Positions 3,683-16,010 of a stretch of 39,616 nt of DNA are shown here, one piece after another. The notes beneath the pieces are model-generated. The model did no database searches. It worked only from the letters and a program-made list of their open reading frames with translations, and had not been told where the DNA came from. Position numbers and translations under genes: made by a program. This stretch comes from a virus, in the IMG/VR virus record IMGVR_UViG_3300045988_080187, positions 1 through 39,616 of that record, one strand, 5' to 3'. How positions within the stretch are numbered: the stretch's first letter is position 1; each line of letters opens with the position of its first letter.

Positions 3683-3850
3683 CTATAATTCATCAATTAA
3701 ATCCCCTAAGGTTATCAGCAAGCAATCACCAAATGGCTCATCAAGAGGACATTCTGTACAGAATTTTCCTTCACAGAAACGCTCATGCAACTTGTCATAC
3801 AACCCATTCAATTCTTTTACACACTCGTCTATTTCTTTGTATTCACTCAT
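3683..3850 (-). CDS. Small Cys-rich protein, 55 aa, paralog C (MSEYKEIDECVKEL...FCEGKFCTECP). It is absent from the ORF track because it is shorter than 60 aa.
   Basis: Hand translation of the minus strand. It is preceded by the conserved initiation cassette AAGGACAAGGATATG. Confidence 0.4.
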   Translation of the reverse strand: MSEYKEIDECVKELNGLYDKLHERFCEGKFCTECPLDEPFGDCLLITLGDLIDEL

Positions 3851-3860
3851 ATCCTTGTCC

Positions 3861-4088
3861 TTACAACCTTTCTATTATTTGCTGAATCTTTTTTATCTTG
3901 TTTTCATACAGAACTCTGTTCTTATGCATCTTCAGTTTCAGCTCGTTTTCTTTCTCTTCTAGTGTCTTTTCATAGCATTCCTTTTTTCTGTACAGCTCTT
4001 CTTTCAACTCCTTGACATTTTTTCTTTTTGAAAGGATCTTCGGATTGTTCGAAAAACACCATTCACTTAATTCTTCTTTAGCATCCAT
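3861..4088 (-). CDS. Small coiled-coil protein, 75 aa, K/E-rich.
   Basis: ORF track. Confidence 0.4.
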   Translation of the reverse strand: MDAKEELSEWCFSNNPKILSKRKNVKELKEELYRKKECYEKTLEEKENELKLKMHKNRVLYENKIKKIQQIIERL

Positions 4089-4102
4089 TTATGACTTCTT
4101 TT

Positions 4103-5089
4103 TTAAAATAGATTTAACTCTTTTTCTTCTGTTTCTCCCAGAATCAGTTTTCGAAATATGCTTTCGAAAATTGGAACTGGAATTGAATTTCCTGCTTGCT
4201 TGTACAATGCACTGTTCATACATCCTTCTTTTCCTGGGTTTACCATTGCTGCATTATCGAAATCCTCATCCGTATACCCTTGAAGTCTCCAACATTCACG
4301 TTCCGTCAAATATCTGTATATTCCATCGTCTAGCTTAATTACACCACTGTTAGGACTCCTCATTTGTTTGCATGTGATCGTATATGCATAGTTCTCAATT
4401 ACATTCACACCAAAACTTGAATTTTTACCAGCTTTGATTTTTTCAATCATCGAAGGCTGCGTGACTCTGTAATAATCAGCAGTATTTTCTTCCAAGAAAT
4501 CTTTGATATCTCTCATCGGTGTATGAATCAAATCTGAAAAATCAAAGTATTCGTTTCCTTGAATACTGACTGTGAAATATCGCTTTCGAGCTTGTGGAAG
4601 TCCAAAATCTCTTGCGTCCAGAAGTTCGAATGATGATACATATCCCATCTTTGCAAGTTCCGACATATACCTATTGTGATTGTGTACCATGTACTTGGAA
4701 CGTACATTTTTGACGTTTTCCCATATCACAACTTTAGGTTTCCAAACACCCATGTTCTGAATGATTTTGATTGTTTCCCACATCAGACTTGAACGTGTCT
4801 CTGAGCCTTCATCAGCACCTTTCTGTTTTCCTGCAATGCTGAAATCTTGGCATGGCGAGCCATGAACAAGAATGTCTGGTCTTAGATTCCACCCAACAAC
4901 GGTTTGCGTCTTGTATTGGAGTTCATCAGCAAACATGGCATTGTAAGACCTAACTGCTTTCTCATCAATTTCTACATAGTCAATTGACTTTATAGGAATC
5001 CCAAGATTTCTAAGAGCACATCTTGGTGAGCCAATTCCGCCGAATAGTTCAAGGATTTGAATCGTTTTTACTTCACCCTCAGAAGTCAT
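4103..5089 (-). CDS. DNA cytosine-5 methyltransferase (orphan; no cognate restriction enzyme in the window).
   Basis: Motif I ILELFGGIG, motif IV GSPCQDFS and motif VI ENV are present in the canonical order. Confidence 0.9.
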   Translation of the reverse strand: MTSEGEVKTIQILELFGGIGSPRCALRNLGIPIKSIDYVEIDEKAVRSYNAMFADELQYKTQTVVGWNLRPDILVHGSPCQDFSIAGKQKGADEGSETRSSLMWETIKIIQNMGVWKPKVVIWENVKNVRSKYMVHNHNRYMSELAKMGYVSSFELLDARDFGLPQARKRYFTVSIQGNEYFDFSDLIHTPMRDIKDFLEENTADYYRVTQPSMIEKIKAGKNSSFGVNVIENYAYTITCKQMRSPNSGVIKLDDGIYRYLTERECWRLQGYTDEDFDNAAMVNPGKEGCMNSALYKQAGNSIPVPIFESIFRKLILGETEEKELNLF

Positions 5090-8788: not shown

Positions 8789-9015
8789 TGGTATTTCTCC
8801 ACTATGTATTCTGCGAGTTCATCTGCAATGTATTGTGTATCAACATTTTTTGCTACTTCGAAATCAATTCCATAAAGCATCATGTCTGCTGCCTTGCATA
8901 AAGCACTGACAACTTTCATATCCAACACGCTTGCATCTTCTTTGCATTTCTCTTTGTACATCTGTTCATGCCTGTCTATTTCTAGATTTCTGACTGTTTC
9001 TGCATAGCTGTTCAT
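8785..9015 (-). CDS. Hypothetical protein, 76 aa.
   Basis: ORF track. Confidence 0.45.
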   Translation of the reverse strand: MNSYAETVRNLEIDRHEQMYKEKCKEDASVLDMKVVSALCKAADMMLYGIDFEVAKNVDTQYIADELAEYIVEKYQ

Positions 9016-9503
9016 TTCACTTTTTCCTCTATTCTGTTGATTCTGCTCAACATGCTTGCTGTTAGGTTAATCTGACGTTCTTGATTGGAAACGATCGTTT
9101 CAAGCGTCTTCTGAATGATGTTGCATGTTACATTCACTGTTTTTGCTAGCTTTGCACTGCCTTCTGTTTCTTCATTGACATCATTTCCAATTGAATCAAG
9201 CTGTGCTAGAAGAAGCTCAATTCCTCTGTCAATATGTCTGCATACTTCAACAGAATTGTCTGGTTCATTGCTCTTTTCCACAGGCTTTTCAGCTAGATAA
9301 TCTTCTGATTTGATTCCGTACTTTAGCTCTAGAAGCATGCTGATCGGCTTTGAAACTGTTCTTGCGCTCAAGCATCCTGCTAGATATTTCCTTGAATATC
9401 CAAGTTGAGTACTGCAATCATCAACTGAATCTTCTTTCTCAAGAATCAGCTTTCTCAGCTTGTCACTGTCAATTTTGATTTTCTCTGATTGTGTATTGTC
9501 CAT
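9012..9503 (-). CDS. Hypothetical protein, about 163 aa. The start was moved to the internal ATG preceded by AAGAAGGGCAAGGAC (track ORF 9012..9596).
   Basis: The conserved initiation cassette precedes M32, which sits 15 nt after the upstream gene's stop at 9521. Confidence 0.5.
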   Translation of the reverse strand: MDNTQSEKIKIDSDKLRKLILEKEDSVDDCSTQLGYSRKYLAGCLSARTVSKPISMLLELKYGIKSEDYLAEKPVEKSNEPDNSVEVCRHIDRGIELLLAQLDSIGNDVNEETEGSAKLAKTVNVTCNIIQKTLETIVSNQERQINLTASMLSRINRIEEKVK

Positions 9504-9520
9504 GTCCTTGCCCTTCTTTC

Positions 9521-9757
9521 TTAATTCACTGTGTGTATGATTCTGTATCTCTTCCACTTCTTGCCAATTCCGTATTTGTAATTTCCGTGTTCCCATTCAT
9601 CAATGACTCTTTCTTTATCACCGTTCGCAAGAAGTGTTTTCTTCAAATCGAAGATTCTTCCAGACAGCCTTGTTTCATTTAGAAACTGAAATGCTTCCAT
9701 TGATGTAATTCCATTGTGGGCTTTCATGTATTCGTATACTTTGTCTACTCTGTTCAT
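9521..9757 (-). CDS. Putative winged-helix DNA-binding protein, 78 aa.
   Basis: ITSMEAFQFLNETRLSGRIFDLKK is HTH-like. Confidence 0.35.
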   Translation of the reverse strand: MNRVDKVYEYMKAHNGITSMEAFQFLNETRLSGRIFDLKKTLLANGDKERVIDEWEHGNYKYGIGKKWKRYRIIHTVN

Positions 9758-9975
9758 ACTTCGCCTTTTCCAAATAACAGATAATCTGATGAACAGTCTA
9801 ATGTTTCACAAATCTTCATTAGCTTTCCTGTTGTTGGGATTGCTTGTTCATTTGATGTGTAGTTAGCAACTGCTTCTCTTGTCAATCCAATCTTTTTTGC
9901 TAGTTCTTTCTGCGTGATGTTCTTTTCTTTCATCACTTTGCTAAGTCTTTCTCCAAAATCTGATTTCACTTTCAA
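9754..9975 (-). CDS. XRE-family HTH regulator, Cro-like, 73 aa.
   Basis: ITQKELAKKIGLTREAVANYTSNEQAIPTTGKLMKICETL is an HTH_3 motif. Confidence 0.8.
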   Translation of the reverse strand: MKVKSDFGERLSKVMKEKNITQKELAKKIGLTREAVANYTSNEQAIPTTGKLMKICETLDCSSDYLLFGKGEV

Positions 9976-10130
9976 CTCCCATATTTCATTATTATTTTTC
10001 GTGATACAAATGCTGTTGCAGCCATTGCGATCATCACTCTTACATCGTTTGCAAATGGTGCCAGAAGTAATGTGATGAAGAATGTTATTCCCAATGCATT
10101 CTGTATTTCACGCCTTAAATGTCTTTTCAT
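9972..10130 (-). CDS. Small membrane protein, about 52 aa, with its start moved to the internal ATG (track ORF 9972..10172).
   Basis: The conserved cassette GGGCAAGGACATG precedes the internal M; one hydrophobic helix (ITFFITLLLAPF). Confidence 0.35.
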   Translation of the reverse strand: MKRHLRREIQNALGITFFITLLLAPFANDVRVMIAMAATAFVSRKIIMKYGS

Positions 10131-10161
10131 GTCCTTGCCCCTTTGATAGAATAGTCTTGCG

Positions 10162-10533
10162 TTAATTCGCAAGTTTTTTATTTGAGAGATGCGTTGCTTT
10201 GGACTGTTTCGCTTCTCTCTTTTTTAATTCTTTGGCAATCTGTATGCTTTCAACGGTTGATATGTCATACCCATCCCATTCAGTGAAAAGCTCATCTAAA
10301 TCAGACTGCCTGTACAACCATCTACCACTTTTCGAAACCATGATTGATGGAAGTATTCTCTGCTGTCTCCACATGTCGATTCTTGAACGACTGACCTTCA
10401 TGTACTTTCTTGCTTCTTCAGTTGTCATAATCTTTTCTTGCTGTGGTGACTTTGCTGCATTTAATGCATTTTTTAATTCGTCAACCTCTTCCAAAAGGCT
10501 CTGAATCTTTTGTGGTATTTCCAACAATTCCAT
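10162..10533 (-). CDS. Excisionase-like / HTH_17 (MerR-superfamily) DNA-binding protein, about 123 aa. The likely start is the internal ATG (track ORF 10162..10611, which starts at TTG).
   Basis: TEEARKYMKVSRSRIDMWRQQRILPSIMVSKSGRWLYRQSDLDELF matches the Xis/HTH_17 pattern. Confidence 0.5.
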   Translation of the reverse strand: MELLEIPQKIQSLLEEVDELKNALNAAKSPQQEKIMTTEEARKYMKVSRSRIDMWRQQRILPSIMVSKSGRWLYRQSDLDELFTEWDGYDISTVESIQIAKELKKREAKQSKATHLSNKKLAN

Positions 10534-10666
10534 ATGCCATCCCCATTCCTTCCAGATATCCCTGCAGGAAGTAGTAGAGCTTTGTTCTCTCTTCTTCATT
10601 TGACTTTTCAAATGACAGCTTCATGTAGTTCTGGAAGATGTTTCTCTGTGCTTCTGTTGTTTCCAT
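10481..10666 (-). CDS. Hypothetical small ORF, 61 aa, overlapping 10162..10533 out of frame. It is possibly spurious, or it is the real first gene of the operon.
   Basis: ORF track only. Confidence 0.25.
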   Translation of the reverse strand: METTEAQRNIFQNYMKLSFEKSNEEERTKLYYFLQGYLEGMGMAYGIVGNTTKDSEPFGRG

Positions 10667-10819
10667 ATTTTCCTTTCTACGAGCTTATCTGCTCGGTGTA
10701 CACCACTAGGAGAGACAAATGAATTAGAAGGGTAAACGTTTAGTGATGTACACCCAGAAGACAAGCTTCTGTGTTCGATTATCAGTAGCATTTAGTACTG
10801 TCAAATCTTTCAATTGTGA
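10667..10819 (-). promoter_or_regulatory. Structured, relatively GC-rich intergenic leader holding a TTGACA box, the 10-bp perfect palindrome GGTGTACACC (10695-10704), a related copy TGATGTACACCC (10744-10755), and two short hairpins. It is a candidate operator, promoter or small structured RNA.
   Basis: Read from the sequence; there are no ORFs in the 153-nt gap. Confidence 0.35.
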
Positions 10820-11125
10820 TTACTTTGAGAACACTCCACGTCTCTTTAACTCTTTTCTGACTTCATTCATCAGCTTTCTGTAGCTTACAAATCCATCTGC
10901 TTCTTCGATTTCAAAATCAGCTGTCAGCATTACTGATTGCGTGTTATTCTCGGTGCAGTAGTCATCCAAGATGGAATTGACATCTTCCATAACATCATCA
11001 CTGTCTTGTCCGAATGCCTTAACCATCTCGCTCCATGATTCAATGCCCCAATCTGAATAGTCTTCATTGATTGTGTTTTCGTAATAATCAGCTAGGATTC
11101 TTACTGCTAGTTCTAGGTTTGTCAT
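10820..11125 (-). CDS. Acidic hypothetical protein, 101 aa, D/E-rich (DNA-mimic or anti-restriction candidate).
   Basis: About 22 acidic residues out of 101; it is the first gene after an operator array. Confidence 0.5.
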   Translation of the reverse strand: MTNLELAVRILADYYENTINEDYSDWGIESWSEMVKAFGQDSDDVMEDVNSILDDYCTENNTQSVMLTADFEIEEADGFVSYRKLMNEVRKELKRRGVFSK

Positions 11126-11267
11126 GTCCTTGTCCTTCTTTCTACTTTGTAAAGTATTTCTTTTTGCTTGTATGAATACTTTATAATAAATATTCTAATT
11201 TGTAAAGCATATCACTGCATTTCCATCAAAATAATTCTAATTTGTAGAATTTAAATGAAAATAAAAA
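11126..11267. promoter_or_regulatory. Operator/promoter array OL-like: three direct CTAnTTTGTA(A/G)A boxes (near 11147, 11199 and 11248). The first 40 bp are near-identical to 13284..13325.
   Basis: Direct sequence comparison with the divergent repressor region. Confidence 0.55.
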
Positions 11268-11540
11268 CTATTCTACAGGTAATTCGATAAACTGCTTCTT
11301 GCTCAATCCACAGAATGCTTTTACATGCTTTCCAATTTTTGTATTCCAACCGTCATACAGTCTTTCTAATCTTCCGTCATCATACTTCTTGATAATTGGG
11401 ATTCCGTAACTGTATAGCGTTTCACTACAGTCATAATTAATTTTTATGACTGCCCTTCCCCAAAAGGTCTTATCTCTCTGTTCTGGTAGTGGTTCTAAAT
11501 CATACTTGTATTCGTTCATTTTCTTTTCCCTCTCTTGCAT
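11268..11540 (-). CDS. Hypothetical protein, 90 aa.
   Basis: ORF track. Confidence 0.5.
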   Translation of the reverse strand: MQEREKKMNEYKYDLEPLPEQRDKTFWGRAVIKINYDCSETLYSYGIPIIKKYDDGRLERLYDGWNTKIGKHVKAFCGLSKKQFIELPVE

Positions 11541-11701
11541 ACTGCTCTGTAATATGTTTCAAACTCTCTCTGCTCTTCATCCCATCCATACAGTCCAAGC
11601 ATTTTATACATCAATATATACAGCTTTTCTCTACTGATATCTGGATGCTTGATTACAGCATTTTCAAACGTCTTGATCGCTTCAATTGTCATTTCTTCCA
11701 T
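11516..11701 (-). CDS. Hypothetical protein, 61 aa.
   Basis: ORF track. Confidence 0.4.
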   Translation of the reverse strand: MEEMTIEAIKTFENAVIKHPDISREKLYILMYKMLGLYGWDEEQREFETYYRAVCKRGKRK

Positions 11702-11902
11702 TTACATACTCTCCTCTATCATCTGCAGCATTACCTTGTTTGCTTCTGTTACACTAAGTGCCCTTGCTTCGCTTTCAACTTTGTTGTCACATAATGTTTT
11801 CACTGAAAATATCTTGTTGTCCTGCAAAGTCATGATTACCATTTTTCTTCCTGCATTGAACTGTCTTTCAAAGATTGCAACTGTTTTGATGTTATTCATC
11901 AT
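11702..11902 (-). CDS. Hypothetical protein, 66 aa.
   Basis: ORF track. Confidence 0.4.
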   Translation of the reverse strand: MMNNIKTVAIFERQFNAGRKMVIMTLQDNKIFSVKTLCDNKVESEARALSVTEANKVMLQMIEESM

Positions 11903-12191
11903 TTTCCTTCTTCTCTAGCTTTCTAGTAAATTTAATAGCATATAAAAACTCATCTAACAGCCTAAACTGCTCCTTCCAATAGCTGATTAAATTCTTTTCG
12001 CCACAACCGTTGATGTGATAACCTGCTTCCAAATCTTCGATTGCTTCTCTATACATCTGCCTAAAGTCATTTGCTGTCTTTCGTGTCGTGAGTCCTACGC
12101 ACAGCTTCTTACCTAACAGAGTACATCTCATTGTACTTGGGCTATAGTTCTGCAGTTCCTGTTCATTTCTCATCTGATTCTTCATTTTCAT
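11892..12191 (-). CDS. Hypothetical protein, 99 aa.
   Basis: ORF track. Confidence 0.5.
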   Translation of the reverse strand: MKMKNQMRNEQELQNYSPSTMRCTLLGKKLCVGLTTRKTANDFRQMYREAIEDLEAGYHINGCGEKNLISYWKEQFRLLDEFLYAIKFTRKLEKKENDE

Positions 12192-12346
12192 TTTCTCCTT
12201 TGATTCAACTCTTCTATCTCATATTCATCATCAATCGGCAAATCATACTCATCCAAAAATATCACTCCGTAATTTGCGAGCTGACTTAAAGCTACCATTC
12301 TGTCGTACTTCGACCATTCACAATTTATCTTCTTTGTAGTTCTCAT
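12188..12346 (-). CDS. Small hypothetical protein, 52 aa (MRTTKKINCEWSKYDRMVALSQLANYGVIFLDEYDLPIDDEYEIEELNQRRK). It is not in the ORF track.
   Basis: Hand translation; an RBS GAGAGGGAATAATC precedes the ATG, and an ATGA overlap links it to the downstream gene. Confidence 0.35.
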   Translation of the reverse strand: MRTTKKINCEWSKYDRMVALSQLANYGVIFLDEYDLPIDDEYEIEELNQRRK

Positions 12347-12364
12347 GATTATTCCCTCTCTTTC

Positions 12365-12604
12365 TTACTTTCCGTATGTGTACAATCTTGAGCCGAATTC
12401 ACCAAATCTCATTACTTCGTTGTAGATTTTCTTGAGCATTAATGCTTGGCATCCATCAGTTGACTTGTAGATGCGAAATCTTCTTCCGTCTTCTCTTTCA
12501 AGCAATTCATCTAGTGACCAATGGAATAAGCCTGCTTCCCATTGCAGCCTCTTTAGTGTTGCATCTTCAATTTCTGTGATCTGTCTTAGTTTTGTCTTTT
12601 TCAT
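12365..12604 (-). CDS. Hypothetical protein, 79 aa.
   Basis: ORF track; the conserved initiation cassette lies at its start. Confidence 0.5.
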   Translation of the reverse strand: MKKTKLRQITEIEDATLKRLQWEAGLFHWSLDELLEREDGRRFRIYKSTDGCQALMLKKIYNEVMRFGEFGSRLYTYGK

Positions 12605-12673
12605 GTCCTTGTCCTTTCTGCAAAAGCAACTCTTTATATGGTGGCTTTTAATTGCTCCACAAATGTCATTTTC

Positions 12674-12865
12674 TTAGTTTTGACTACCCAAGCCCCACAT
12701 GCTACCGAAATACTCATCAATCTGTTCAATGGTGTCATGAAGCAATTCCATTTCAGATGTAAAGCCATAATGATTCTTTGACTCTTCAGCTTCCATCAAT
12801 GCCATTGCATTTCTGATACGCCATATGTTTGCATCTTCAGCAACATTCAATTCAACTCTAATCAT
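12674..12865 (-). CDS. Hypothetical protein, about 63 aa, with its start moved to the internal ATG (track ORF 12674..13030).
   Basis: AGGAGAAGGACATG precedes M56; the ATG overlaps the 3' end of the upstream gene. Confidence 0.4.
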   Translation of the reverse strand: MIRVELNVAEDANIWRIRNAMALMEAEESKNHYGFTSEMELLHDTIEQIDEYFGSMWGLGSQN

Positions 12866-13283
12866 GTCCTTCTCCTTTCGTCCAATAATTGCCAATACAT
12901 CCATGTGAGCTATTCCATGTATCCCAAATCTTTCCGTCTTTAATACAGACTGTATGATGCCCACCGATATGAGCAACACATGTACCTTTGAATTCTTCCA
13001 CAAACTCAACGCCTGTATATTTTTTACCATTGCTTTTCTTTGGCTGTTTGTTCTTAACCCATCCCTTGGATTTCAAATAATCTTCTTCACCCTTCGTTGA
13101 ATTAGGCACAATACCTGTTTCAATAAACATTTCGAATCTTTCTCTTACTGATTCGTTGTAATCTATTCCAAGTGCCAGGCTGATTGCACGGAATGAACAA
13201 TCACCTGTCAGCTTGCCTTTTGGATTTGCATTGAAATAATTGAATGCTTTAGTGTTCGGAAACTTCTTTTCTCTTGATGTCAT
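12858..13283 (-). CDS. Hypothetical protein, 141 aa; first gene of the early leftward operon.
   Basis: ORF track. It sits directly downstream of the OR-like operators, and no Cro-like ORF intervenes. Confidence 0.55.
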   Translation of the reverse strand: MTSREKKFPNTKAFNYFNANPKGKLTGDCSFRAISLALGIDYNESVRERFEMFIETGIVPNSTKGEEDYLKSKGWVKNKQPKKSNGKKYTGVEFVEEFKGTCVAHIGGHHTVCIKDGKIWDTWNSSHGCIGNYWTKGEGHD

Positions 13284-13472
13284 ATCCTTACCCTTCTTTC
13301 TACTTTGTAAAGTATTTCTTTTTGTTTGTACTTATACTTTATACTATTTTCTCTAATTTGTAAAGTGTTTTGATGAAATTCTTTTGATTTTATTCTATTT
13401 TGTAGAATTTGAATCATTTATTGTTTACAATTTGAAAATATGTTGCCATACTAAAGTTATCTAGGAGAAAAT
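13284..13472. promoter_or_regulatory. Divergent repressor/early promoter region (OR-like): three direct CTAnTTTGTA(A/G)A boxes (near 13308, 13360 and 13405) plus an inverted copy TGTTTACAA.
   Basis: Repeats read from the sequence. The region lies between the divergently oriented repressor gene and the early operon. Confidence 0.6.
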
Positions 13473-13874
13473 ATGGATACTATAGGAAATAGAATTAAAA
13501 AGCTCAGAAAAACATTAGGATTGAGCCAACAAGAATTTGCAGAACAAATCGGCGTTAAAGGGGGTTCTATATCTCTTTACGAAATTGATGCAAGAGAACC
13601 ATCAGAAAGAAACAAAGCAGGAATTCTGAAAGAGTTCCATGTTAACCCTGTATGGCTTGATACAGGTGAAGGCGAAATGTTTCTGCCCTTCTCTGAATCT
13701 GATGAAATCATCCGTTTTGCTCGCTCCGTTACTAAAGCTGAAGATGGTGACATCCGTCTTGAGATCATGAAGCTCCTCGCAAGAATGACTCCAGAACAAT
13801 GGGAAGAATCTTGGAATCTCTGGTGTCGTGCAAAGCTCCTTATCAACGACATAAAAAAAGACGGTGTGAAATAA
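13473..13874 (+). CDS. CI-like XRE-family repressor, 133 aa.
   Basis: The N-terminal HTH_3 motif LRKTLGLSQQEFAEQIGVKGGSISLYE; divergent from the early operon and adjacent to the integrase. Confidence 0.85.
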   Translation: MDTIGNRIKKLRKTLGLSQQEFAEQIGVKGGSISLYEIDAREPSERNKAGILKEFHVNPVWLDTGEGEMFLPFSESDEIIRFARSVTKAEDGDIRLEIMKLLARMTPEQWEESWNLWCRAKLLINDIKKDGVK

Positions 13875-13883
13875 CCGTCTAGA

Positions 13884-13909
13884 AAGCGTTCTAAGCAACG
13901 CTTTTTTAT
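13884..13909 (+). terminator. Rho-independent terminator of the repressor gene.
   Basis: Hairpin AAGCGTT-CTAAGC-AACGCTT followed by TTTTTT. Confidence 0.7.
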
Positions 13910-13926
13910 TTGGATGGATAAAATTA

Positions 13927-14088
13927 TCATTCCCTGCTTCCATCGCTCTCAGAATCAATTCTATGCACATTCTCGCATGTTTCAGTATCATCTGCAACCA
14001 TCACAGTGTACGCATACACTTCTTTTACCTGTTCCTCTGTCATACCTTGTAGAAACAGAACGATGTACTTAATCAATATTTTTTTCAT
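13927..14088 (-). CDS. Small ORF, 53 aa, convergent with the repressor gene; of uncertain reality.
   Basis: Hand translation with a good RBS (AGGAGACAAGGACATG); it is not in the ORF track. Confidence 0.25.
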   Translation of the reverse strand: MKKILIKYIVLFLQGMTEEQVKEVYAYTVMVADDTETCENVHRIDSESDGSRE

Positions 14089-14218
14089 GTCCTTGTCTCC
14101 TTTTCAGAATTTTAGTTTCACATCTATTTTCTGCCTAGGAAACAACTGCTTGAATTTCAAATCAATATCTCGCATATTTTGCGAAACTTCTTTTCTTTCT
14201 TTTTCTTTCTTTTCTTAA

Positions 14219-14345
14219 ATAGTAATAATATCTATATAGTAAATATATATAGTATATAGTAATAGTATATAGTATATAGAAAGGTATGCATACACTATGC
14301 ATAGGGTATATATAGGGTATGTATATGGTATCCATAGGGTATCAA
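14219..14345. repeat. Degenerate tandem repeats, TATATAGTA about 5 times and ATAGGGTAT 3 times, upstream of the integrase gene. They are a candidate int/regulator binding array or attP arm.
   Basis: Read from the sequence. Confidence 0.6.
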
Positions 14346-14452
14346 AAACTGCATAAAAACCCATATGTACAGCAAACACTATACACACCACGTATGCATA
14401 TCATTATCTTATTTACACTCTTCGATTTTTTGACCACATGGAGTCCTAGCTA

Positions 14453-14489
14453 TAAAATAAAAAAAAGCAGGAGACATGACTTTCCTGCT
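14453..14489 (-). terminator. Strong intrinsic terminator on the minus strand (hairpin GCAGGA...TCCTGC followed by a U-run on the minus strand). It lies just upstream of the integrase start.
   Basis: Inverted repeat flanked by an A-run on the plus strand. Confidence 0.55.
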
Positions 14490-14531
14490 TTAAATCCTAT
14501 TACTAGGACAAGGACAGGAGTATTATACCAC

Positions 14532-15662
14532 ATGAAAAAGGAAAAGTACATTTACGAAAGAAAGACAAAAAAAGGTTCTCCTTACTTTCAGATTCAGATT
14601 GCATTCAAAGATGAATATGGACAGAGTAAGACTTTCTACGAATCTGTTCAGATTTCTGACTATGAATCCAAGTCACAGGCAAAAGCTGTTGCAATTGCTA
14701 TCCGTGACAAGGCTCTATATGAGATTCAGACCAACAGAATCATCATTGCTTCTCCTACTGTTGGTCAGTTGTACAGCAAAATGTATGAGCTTATTCCTTG
14801 TTCTTTAGGTACAAAGAAATGCTACAGTTCACTTTACAGAAATGGCATTAATGCATTCGAGAATGTTCAGATTTCTAAAATCACTACAGCAGACATTCAG
14901 AAAAACATAAACGAATACGCAGAAAACAAATCAGATGAACGCATTCACAGATACATCATTCTTTGGGGTAAGCTGTACAAAGTTGCATTGATGCTTGGAT
15001 ATGACGTAATTGACCGTTCAAAAATGGTCATAGCTCCAAAATCAAAGAAAATCAAATCAAAGAAAAAGGTCACATGTAATCAAGATACTCTTAACATCGT
15101 TTTGGATTATCTTGCTTCTTACGAAACAGAAAACAACACGCTCAAACACCGTGCACGCATGATTTGGTATCTAATAATCATCATGAACTATACAGGCATG
15201 AGACCTGCAGAAGTTCTAGCCTTGAATGCAGAAGATATCACTAATGACTATATATCAGTCAACAAATCCATAGGCTCTTCAAAAGATGAAACTACTGTAG
15301 TGAAAACCACAAAGACAGCTCAATCAATCAGACAAGTTCCTATTCATCCGGATTTGCTTCCAATTCTCAAACAATTAAAACATGAACAAAAGACTTCCCC
15401 ATTGCTTACAAATCTAGATGGTTCTTTAATTGAACCACTTCAAAGATGCAACATGATTACAAATATCTGTGAAAAAGCTGGAATCAAATTCAACCTGTAC
15501 ATGCTTCGCCACAACATGGCAACCGACCTTCTCAACATGAATATCTCTCAAAGAACAGTAGTAGACATTCTTGGTCACGCTTCCTTCAACATGTCGCTTG
15601 AATATGCACGTTCAACAGAAGAAGATAGAAAGAAAGCTGTCGATTCTAGAAAACTGAATTAA
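14532..15662 (+). CDS. int: Tyrosine integrase/recombinase, about 376 aa. The start was moved from 14319 to the ATG that follows the terminator and an RBS.
   Basis: The C-terminal catalytic region LRHNMATDLL...ILGHASFNMSLEYARS follows the R..H-x-x-R..Y pattern. The N-terminus MKKEKYIYERKTKKG looks like an arm-binding domain. Confidence 0.9.
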   Translation: MKKEKYIYERKTKKGSPYFQIQIAFKDEYGQSKTFYESVQISDYESKSQAKAVAIAIRDKALYEIQTNRIIIASPTVGQLYSKMYELIPCSLGTKKCYSSLYRNGINAFENVQISKITTADIQKNINEYAENKSDERIHRYIILWGKLYKVALMLGYDVIDRSKMVIAPKSKKIKSKKKVTCNQDTLNIVLDYLASYETENNTLKHRARMIWYLIIIMNYTGMRPAEVLALNAEDITNDYISVNKSIGSSKDETTVVKTTKTAQSIRQVPIHPDLLPILKQLKHEQKTSPLLTNLDGSLIEPLQRCNMITNICEKAGIKFNLYMLRHNMATDLLNMNISQRTVVDILGHASFNMSLEYARSTEEDRKKAVDSRKLN

Positions 15663-15667
15663 AAAAA

Positions 15668-15699
15668 GCCTCTGCATTTCACTTTGCAGAGGTTTTTCA
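15668..15699 (+). terminator. Rho-independent terminator after the integrase gene.
   Basis: GCCTCTGCA-loop-TGCAGAGG followed by TTTTT. Confidence 0.7.
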
Positions 15700-15763
15700 A
15701 TATAGAGAGGATTGTATAAAATAGCCATCTATATTTTAGCAAAATGCGTAAAAATATGCCATA

Positions 15764-15970
15764 TTTCTTGGATATTTTCTTGGACAAAATCTGTTTTTAG
15801 CTTATTTATGCATAAATTCATACTTTCTAAAAATACAAGAATGTGATTTTACTAATTTTACTATTCATTATTATTCGTGTATTTACGCTGTTTTCATACA
15901 AATTCAATATCTGAATATAGACTATTCTTGACTACTCGTTAAAAATTTTTCTTGGATATTTTCTTGGACA
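15764..15970. other. Candidate attP region: two exact 23-bp direct repeats TTTCTTGGATATTTTCTTGGACA (15764-15786 and 15948-15970), each containing an internal TTCTTGGA iteration, in the AT-rich gap downstream of the integrase gene.
   Basis: Read from the sequence. attP typically abuts the 3' end of the integrase gene. Confidence 0.4.
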
Positions 15971-16010
15971 GTTCTATAATTCTTAACATAATTTTAGAGA
16001 GGTCGATATT

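Follow-up and report, generated by a model that had tools for sequence, protein, structure and literature searches.

Two co-directional copies of a promoter-operator module, very probably cognate to a P22 C2-like repressor, in the immunity region of a human-gut temperate phage

We suggest that the early genes of an uncultured temperate phage, IMG/VR virus record IMGVR_UViG_3300045988_080187 (39,616 nucleotides (nt), analysed at full length and called the window below), are controlled by two tandem copies of one promoter-operator module. The window is a circularly permuted genome of ~39.6 kb with ~36% GC, recovered from gut metagenomes. Nearly all of its genes are on the minus strand; the plus strand carries the integrase gene (14319-15662) and the helix-turn-helix (HTH) gene of the immunity repressor (13473-13874), and a long leftward early operon begins at 13283. 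Array B occupies the intergenic region between the open reading frames (ORFs) 12858-13283 (minus) and 13473-13874 (plus), and array A that between ORFs 10820-11125 and 11268-11540 (both minus). Both arrays are, judged by their sequence, very probably cognate promoter-operator modules. In our preferred reading, to which we give a probability of about 0.7, the two early promoters would each be shut by the phage's own repressor bound to three in-phase operators, of which box 3 would be a strong dyad, box 2 would occlude the -35 and box 1 would act as a roadblock. Coordinates of the features are collected in Table 1.

The two arrays are copies of a direct repeat of 137 nt, which a repeat search places at an offset of 2158 with 79% identity and no gaps. 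The longest exact run common to both copies is 33 nt (CCTTCTTTCTACTTTGTAAAGTATTTCTTTTTG). The original prediction, made by a model from the letters of the window, had described two homologous arrays with boxes at the same places, and this is what is found; its near-identical long stretch is also present, with 33 of the 34 letters of the quoted 34-mer correct. With up to one mismatch allowed, the box pattern TCTANTTTGTARA has six matches in the window, all of them exact and none outside the two arrays. They start at 11141, 11194 and 11236 (A) and at 13299, 13352 and 13394 (B); 1.02 would be expected by chance, and none of 100 shuffles has as many as six. The three direct copies per array had been claimed correctly. 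The spacing is the same in both arrays, again as claimed, and amounts to 53 and 42 bp rather than to a uniform ~50 bp. Centre to centre this corresponds to 5.05 and 4.0 helical turns, hence the three boxes lie on one face of the DNA.

Box 3 is a perfect 17-bp dyad, ATTCTA-N5-TAGAAT (6-5-6), and no perfect instance besides its two copies is found in the window. In boxes 1 and 2 only half of the symmetry is present: the left half TCTA is retained, and the right half has TAAAG. A 6-2-6 register (TACTTT-GT-AAAGTA, half-site centres 8 bp apart) was rejected; it is perfect in box 1 and absent from boxes 2 and 3. The 6-5-6 register is preferred because it is perfect in box 3, is common to all boxes and puts the half-sites 11 bp apart.

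Read along the plus strand, the module consists of the complement of a start codon and strong ribosome-binding site (RBS; CATGTCCTTGTCCTT), box 1, ACTTTA, box 2, a spacer and box 3. ACTTTA is TAAAGT on the minus strand, and the right half of box 2 is the complement of TTTACA. A promoter scan for consensus hexamer matches gives TTTACA-17-TAAAGT, a putative sigma-A-type promoter, on the minus strand of both arrays (11206..11178 in A, 13364..13336 in B). Since the repeat spans the start codon, the RBS, the 5' untranslated region (5'UTR), the -10 and the -35, it is the whole promoter module that is duplicated, beyond the boxes. Both modules face leftward, and both lie to the left of the repressor gene, which is outside the pair. 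Relative to the inferred early start (near 11171 in A and near 13329 in B) the centres of boxes 1, 2 and 3 are at about +24, -29 and -71. Between A and B, box 1 and the -10 are 100% identical, box 3 94% and box 2 82%; the spacer between boxes 2 and 3 is 44% identical, and the sequence past the repeat 18%.

An intrinsic terminator-like site was sought between the two arrays and none was found. Transcripts of the proximal promoter should thus continue through the distal array, so that the proximal unit includes the distal one. The proposal of a separately repressed transcription unit beginning at 11125 hence stands for the gene start with its own promoter-like site and fails for the separateness. 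The first gene of this unit encodes, as had been stated, an acidic protein (pI 4.15, 23 Asp and Glu among 101 amino acids (aa)). On the other side of array B, the predicted inverted box copy TTTACAAT is present at 13423-13430, where it falls on the -35 hexamer of the repressor gene's promoter-like site. A degenerate fourth box, CATTTATTGTTTACAAT (13415-13431), overlaps the same -35 and is a direct repeat of the box 3 region (family D4). It may serve autoregulation of the repressor.

The repressor belongs to the Xre/P22 C2-like family, with an HTH_3/HTH_19 domain and the C2/434 fold. It matches Pfam HTH_19 (1.5e-10) and HTH_3, the PHROG transcriptional repressor families and, by sequence in the PDB, 434 Cro, P22 C2, PezA and ImmR. 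The AlphaFold2 model (predicted local distance difference test, pLDDT, 88) is all alpha, residues 4-64 forming five helices and residues 75-131 three. In Foldseek the best match of the N-terminal domain (NTD) is the DNA-binding domain of P22 C2 (TM-score 0.89-0.91, root-mean-square deviation (rmsd) 1.2-1.3 A), and over the whole length of the protein SinR, DdrO and arbitrium-phage repressors resemble it only weakly. A C-terminal domain (CTD) of LexA/S24 type was found neither by Pfam, nor by PDB sequence search, nor by fold search of the predicted model. The DNA-binding domains of P22 C2 and 434 bind dyad operators as dimers, and half-site centres 11 bp apart would fit such binding here.

Relatives link the boxes to this repressor. 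A large protein database holds 70 homologues of it; ~40 loci were retrieved, which gave ~25 informative contigs from human-gut metagenomes. A pattern scan of viral contigs has the contig of relative L001 as its sole match, and a scan of genome contigs with the repressor returns only distant HTH proteins, at 35-51% over partial lengths. The repressors are mosaic: in the window and homologues P0001-P0043 the HTH domain occurs in distinct versions, named T1 (window), T2, T2b and T3, and residues ~55-133 are nearly identical. The recognition-helix variants are KGGSISLYE, KAPQVSLIE, NGISISHFE and NNTSISLFE. The near-identity of residues ~55-133 suggests a common oligomerisation surface or induction partner.

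Ten type-1 arrays show no variation in the boxes, the -10 or the -35, and their spacer between boxes 2 and 3 is hypervariable in sequence and constant in length. The left half-site tracks the repressor type in both arrays, being TCTA in T1, TTTA in T2 and GTYCA in T2b. The full sites are TCTA-N5-TA(A/G)A in T1, TTTA-N5-TAAA in T2 with the third site 31-32 bp from box 2, and GTYCA-N3-GTAAA in T2b with the third site inverted. TTTACA and TA(A/G)AGT are kept in all immunity types. The earlier view of the boxes as operator-like sites for the adjacent HTH repressor is thus strengthened by their conservation amid variable spacers and by the half-site that follows the HTH type in both arrays. Replication iterons were considered for the repeats and ruled out, as the arrays sit in the immunity region and vary with the repressor type.

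Several points weigh against the reading of two repressed promoters. The -10 TAAAGT is a weak match (4/6), the whole TTTACA-17-TAAAGT reaches 9/12, and promoter-like sites are no commoner in the region than in shuffles (17 vs 17.0). Array B is linked to the HTH-coding segment, so its type match is possibly due to hitchhiking and array A alone is informative. In L023 (3953-4086) a T2 repressor and a T2 array B stand with a T1-like array A, in whose box 2 the -35 is altered to TTTATA; this is the one clear mismatch of array and resident repressor type, and the contig ends just right of the repressor gene. Many of the related contigs are near-identical, which leaves few independent comparisons: distinct array A sequences number ~4 of T1 type and ~5 of T2 type, from few independent lineages. 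Finally, all immunity types share TTTGTAAAG as the right half of boxes 1 and 2, and since in box 2 this half doubles as the -35, the conservation of the box is partly a constraint on the promoter and not on an operator.

Taken further, this last point leads to the explanation that the TTTGTAAAG core belongs to the promoter, as a -35 or UP-like element, or is bound by a type-independent factor, for instance the Cro-like HTH_19 protein (9754-9975), and that the repressor contacts only box 3 and the region of its own promoter. The Cro-like gene, the sole one of its kind, lies 3.3 kb from the operators and its product is 97-99% identical in T1 and T2 phages, so that its target would be type-independent. 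In addition, the segment which swaps most clearly with the HTH domain extends from about box 3 to the repressor gene. However, a switch with type (TCTA vs TTTA) is also seen, in both arrays, at the left half-sites of boxes 1 and 2; box 1 is in the 5'UTR, where a -35 has no role; and boxes 1-3 share one 17-bp register. We consider this explanation quite unlikely, and retain all three boxes as candidate operators.

An argument for repressed promoters in both places comes from array A. It lies 1.5-2.5 kb from the repressor gene, behind a mosaic cassette, hence linkage alone cannot account for its type match; the spacers of A and B differ, hence gene conversion from array B cannot account for it either. 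Comparison of the window (T1) with the T2 phages L021 and L016 gives 86-99% identity for the genes that flank array A (93-99% for L021) and only 53% for its stretch from box 2 to box 3. A 10-bp indel changes the spacing from 42 to 32 bp, that is by one helical turn, and the phase is preserved. Array A is a type-specific island of ~125 bp among conserved genes, which originated by duplication and was then kept under selection. Heteroimmune variants of this group appear from these alignments to arise by a swap of the HTH domain plus a swap of ~125-bp operator islands at two loci.

That array A is a passive recombination scar of cassette insertion, with no regulatory role, is very unlikely. Such a scar would carry the start codon and RBS that the repeat includes, as expected of unequal crossing-over, and it would suit the highly mosaic content of the cassette, the existence of single-array relatives and the insertion sequence (IS)-like element in the array A -10 of L001, the phage contig being otherwise intact. 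However, boxes, -10 and -35 are conserved though the spacers have diverged to 44%, and array A tracks the repressor type as an island in flanks of 93-99% identity with an indel that keeps the helical phase. The double-immunity phages described below also speak against a scar, as a terminator follows their 53-aa gene and the core operon seems to depend on an inner promoter.

The L001 element deserves a description of its own. In this contig (IMGVR_UViG_3300045988_111740) 684 bp at 3989-4672 split array A between the -10 and box 1. Its ends are inverted over 13 bp (CATAATTGACCAT) and the target is duplicated over 8 bp (TACTTTAT). The element contains an ORF of 145 aa, which from its Cys-rich sequence looks like the zinc-ribbon N-terminus of a transposase. 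L001 is a natural insertion mutant of the distal promoter.

The original prediction compared the arrays with lambda OR/OL and inferred long-range looping. In this explanation the arrays would serve mainly for a ~2.2-kb loop held by repressor oligomers, which tightens repression and tunes repressor synthesis. Two homologous three-site arrays are indeed ~2.16 kb apart, near the lambda OL-OR distance, with boxes in helical phase; the separate helical CTD of the predicted model could oligomerise; and most relatives with enough DNA carry two arrays. However, the lambda arrangement itself is not found, as the arrays are co-directional, the repressor gene has both of them on one side, and they belong in tandem to the same leftward operon. 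Among the relatives the distance from box 1 to box 1 is 257, 261, 1480, 1503, 1848, 2158, 2366 or 2471 bp. Only one array is present in L008 (T1) and L026 (T3), and after it come a 57/58-aa gene, the conserved hairpin and the core operon. With such distances and with single-array relatives, a fixed long-range loop is not a conserved requirement. The repressor also has no S24-type CTD, no type-specific Cro accompanies it, neighbouring arrays in the double-immunity relatives differ in type, and array A is never without a gene start and promoter elements, for which a site serving looping alone would have no use. We regard looping as the main role of the arrays as unlikely.

Returning to two tandem repressed promoters, we propose the following mechanism. 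The analysis directly shows how the module is built, how it is conserved, that it matches the repressor type and that the region is mosaic; repressor binding, promoter activity and cooperativity are suggested by the sequence. Box 3, the perfect dyad, would be the strongest repressor site. Dimers of the P22 C2-like repressor would bind the boxes cooperatively via the helical CTD, and the bound repressor would shut both promoters in the lysogen, with box 2 occluding the -35 and box 1 forming the roadblock. The promoter of array B (P_B) would drive the variable accessory cassette and read through into array A, and the promoter of array A (P_A) would independently drive the genes that follow it, together with the conserved core early operon.

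The modules are read as regulatory units and recombination joints alike. The second array is always accompanied by extra genes, and the gene content of the cassette differs among relatives. Genes also shift between the positions after B and after A: the 63-aa gene of the window cassette follows array A in L001, and an 89-aa gene follows B in L015 and A in L038. In place of the 141-aa gene, which is the first after array B in the window, relatives have a 79-, 89- or 44-aa gene; after array A the 101-aa gene is replaced by a 144-aa, 57-aa or 89-aa gene. Such movement between array positions is expected if the modules act as recombination joints. The translation-start sequence CATRTCCTTGTCCTT (minus strand AAGGACAAGGAYATG) has ten sites in the window vs 0.34 expected, at 3848, 7697, 9501, 10128, 11123, 12602, 12863, 13281 and 39408 and, on the minus strand, at 14504-14518; nine of the ten are on the strand that fits minus-strand gene starts. 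The sequence coincides with mosaic breakpoints among relatives, and in L001 the 79-aa gene is fused directly to array B at it. Most likely the two copies arose and reshuffle by recombination at the conserved promoter/RBS sequence, with insertion, loss and exchange of cassettes and even of whole foreign immunity modules.

Two intact repressor genes and three arrays are found in L033 (5500-8900; T2+T2b) and in L048 (7800-11033; T1+T2b), the arrays of the latter being T2b, T1 and T2b-like. L014 (5500-6486) has a T1 repressor and a T2b-like second array, and its contig is cut just right of the repressor. A T2b repressor was predicted to lie right of the L014 end, and the 40.5-kb L048 later showed T1 and T2b repressors. 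In these relatives the cassette is separated from the distal array by an inserted inner module, made up of the 53-aa gene, the repressor, the array and a 44-47-aa ORF. The 53-aa gene (13927-14088, minus strand, in the window) is conserved and always convergent with the repressor gene, and in the double-immunity relatives a terminator follows the copy that adjoins the inner repressor. Owing to this terminator the core operon seems to need the promoters of the inner arrays, which gives indirect support to promoter function. An assembly chimera was considered for L033 and is unlikely, with ~6 nt of microhomology at the novel junction and the same architecture in L048, which comes from another sample.

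Phages of the L033, L048 and L014 type may be doubly immune prophages. We tentatively propose, as a possibility that we would not yet favour, that the module serves as a docking joint that is portable and matched in immunity: by recombining at the promoter/RBS half, which is conserved, these phages would capture accessory cassettes as well as complete foreign immunity modules (53-aa gene, repressor, array and small ORF). The resulting prophages with two repressors and three arrays (L033, L048) would be immune to two phage types and still inducible, as the core operon promoter would answer only to the outer repressor. If functional, these recombinants would be prophages that widen the immunity of the host via a captured rival repressor, and they are the most interesting lead of this work.

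The lambda (including looping) and TP901-1 switches are summarised in PMC11149083. Like lambda and P22 immC, the system has an HTH repressor with a DNA-binding domain structurally similar to that of P22 C2, two homologous clusters of three ~17-bp dyad-type sites ~2 kb apart, one of them in the divergent region with the repressor's own promoter, and immunity types that consist of a swapped HTH domain and operators. Unlike in lambda and P22, both clusters are co-directional on one side of the repressor gene and do not flank it with divergent PL and PR; the sites are 42-53 bp apart and not adjacent; there is no LexA-like CTD; and the distance between the clusters is not conserved, the second being missing in some relatives. 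A type-specific cognate Cro was not found beside the operators, the first early gene being non-HTH by Pfam and PHROG and variable among relatives.

The predicted model of the repressor fits the architecture of the TP901-1/phi13 type, a short CI with an HTH NTD and an all-helical, non-protease CTD. The phage also resembles this type in its three separated, related palindromic candidate operators (OR, OL and OD in TP901-1), which surround divergent promoters and of which one lies past the lytic promoter on its downstream side. In Foldseek, however, TP901-1 CI is a weak match at rank 47 that covers the NTD only, and the CTD has no detectable similarity. Also in contrast to TP901-1, there is no MOR-like HTH gene after the lytic promoter, the 141-aa first gene being variable and without an HTH, and the whole module has a second copy downstream, a duplication not described for TP901-1. 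SinR and the arbitrium-phage repressors (PDB 1b0n, 9sf2 and 9iaq), which combine an HTH with a helical multimerisation domain and have a small antirepressor, resemble the repressor in the two-domain all-helical architecture. The conservation of its CTD across immunity types is likewise what is expected of a shared partner or induction route. The full-length rmsd is 8-11 A and the resemblance low, so that this likeness is a lead only.

Repressors that control several dispersed sites include P1 C1 and the one that acts on the conserved inverted repeats of phiC31. Here, too, one repressor would control more than one co-directional site or promoter of the early region, and repressor and sites evolve together into new immunity types. 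The difference from stoperators and P1 C1 is that six sites lie in two clusters here vs tens (at least 10) across the genome, that the best site is a perfect dyad and not an asymmetric monomer site, and that the fold is Xre/P22 C2. Multi-site repressors and stoperators of the mycobacteriophage L5 type are treated in PMC9283540 and PMC6550527. The system thus fails the definitions of lambda OL/OR (arrangement, S24 CTD, cognate Cro), of CI/MOR (MOR) and of stoperators (site number). It is best filed as an Xre/C2-type repressor with multiple operator-promoter modules, functionally like known temperate-phage switches, and its particular feature is the tandem co-directional duplication of the module tied to cassette exchange. 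Current concepts of phage repression are unchanged by these findings. They provide a sequence-level working model of how an uncultured group of human-gut phages switches between lysis and lysogeny, with candidate operators, candidate promoters and likely immunity-defining residues, and show that the duplicated module accompanies rapid exchange of early accessory genes, which are candidates for anti-defence or host takeover.

Table 1. Features of the immunity and early region, in positions of the window
Feature	Position	Strand	Remarks
Array B, proximal copy of the module	13278..13414	-	Adjoins the repressor gene; repeat, three exact boxes, promoter-like site
B box 1, TTTCTACTTTGTAAAGT	13297..13313	.	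Centre ~+24 of the inferred early start; 100% identical to A box 1
B box 2, TCTCTAATTTGTAAAGT	13350..13366	.	Overlaps -35 TTTACA 13364..13359 (-); -10 TAAAGT 13341..13336
B box 3, ATTCTATTTTGTAGAAT	13392..13408	.	Perfect 6-5-6 dyad between divergent promoters
Array A, distal copy of the module	11120..11256	-	Repeat, three exact boxes, promoter-like site
A box 1, TTTCTACTTTGTAAAGT	11139..11155	.	
A box 2, ATTCTAATTTGTAAAGC	11192..11208	.	Overlaps -35 11206..11201; -10 at 11183..11178
A box 3, ATTCTAATTTGTAGAAT	11234..11250	.	Perfect dyad
Immunity repressor, 133 aa	13473..13874	+	Xre/P22 C2-like HTH NTD (~residues 1-64), three-helix CTD
Promoter-like site of the repressor gene	13415..13452	+	-35 TTTACA 13424-13429, TG, 17-bp spacer, -10 CATACT 13447-13452; predicted start near 13459
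Accessory cassette between the arrays	11268..13283	-	Eight small genes: 141, 63, 79, 52, 99, 66, 61 and 90 aa
First gene past array A	10820..11125	-	Acidic 101-aa protein; no function from Pfam and PHROG searches
Hairpin at the head of the core early operon	10682..10767	-	27-bp stem, 32-nt loop; directly upstream of the RBS of the 61-aa gene

The conserved core early operon consists of the hairpin, the 61-aa gene (10481-10666), an HTH_17 gene, the Cro-like HTH gene and replication genes. The hairpin has a folding free energy (dG) of -46.8 kcal/mol (z -2.75) and is without a U tract; its stems are kept in all relatives, with one compensatory pair in L026, and the loop varies. A second RNA hairpin, in the box 1/-10 region, was considered as a feature of the P_A transcript and rejected, its 5' arm being upstream of the inferred start. 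An Rfam search of 9500-14500 at a permissive threshold gave no match, which places the arrays and the hairpin outside known RNA families, and a blastn search of 9000-16000 against 50,697 phage records gave no match. Pfam and PHROG searches of the cassette genes were essentially empty, almost all of the genes being without a known family. The 141-aa protein that opens the cassette (12858-13283) has no Pfam family and belongs to PHROG 3754 (unknown function). Its GDC and HH motifs are reminiscent of a small cysteine peptidase, and the gene is missing from some close relatives.

Three minor observations were made outside the arrays. At 10156-10183, between the HTH_17 gene and a 52-aa gene, a stem-loop with a T run lies on the plus strand, opposite to the early operon, and a plus-strand promoter-like site (10124-10152) is directly upstream of it; the stem-loop may terminate an antisense transcript or act as a bidirectional pause site. 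Short tandem repeats (TTCTTTTCT; TATATAG/TATATAGTA; ATAGGGTATAT) are densely packed at 14188-14343, which separates the 53-aa gene from the integrase coding region, and these repeats may be binding sites of regulatory or recombination proteins. The integrase ORF of 447 aa probably starts too far upstream, as relatives have 376 or 422 aa.

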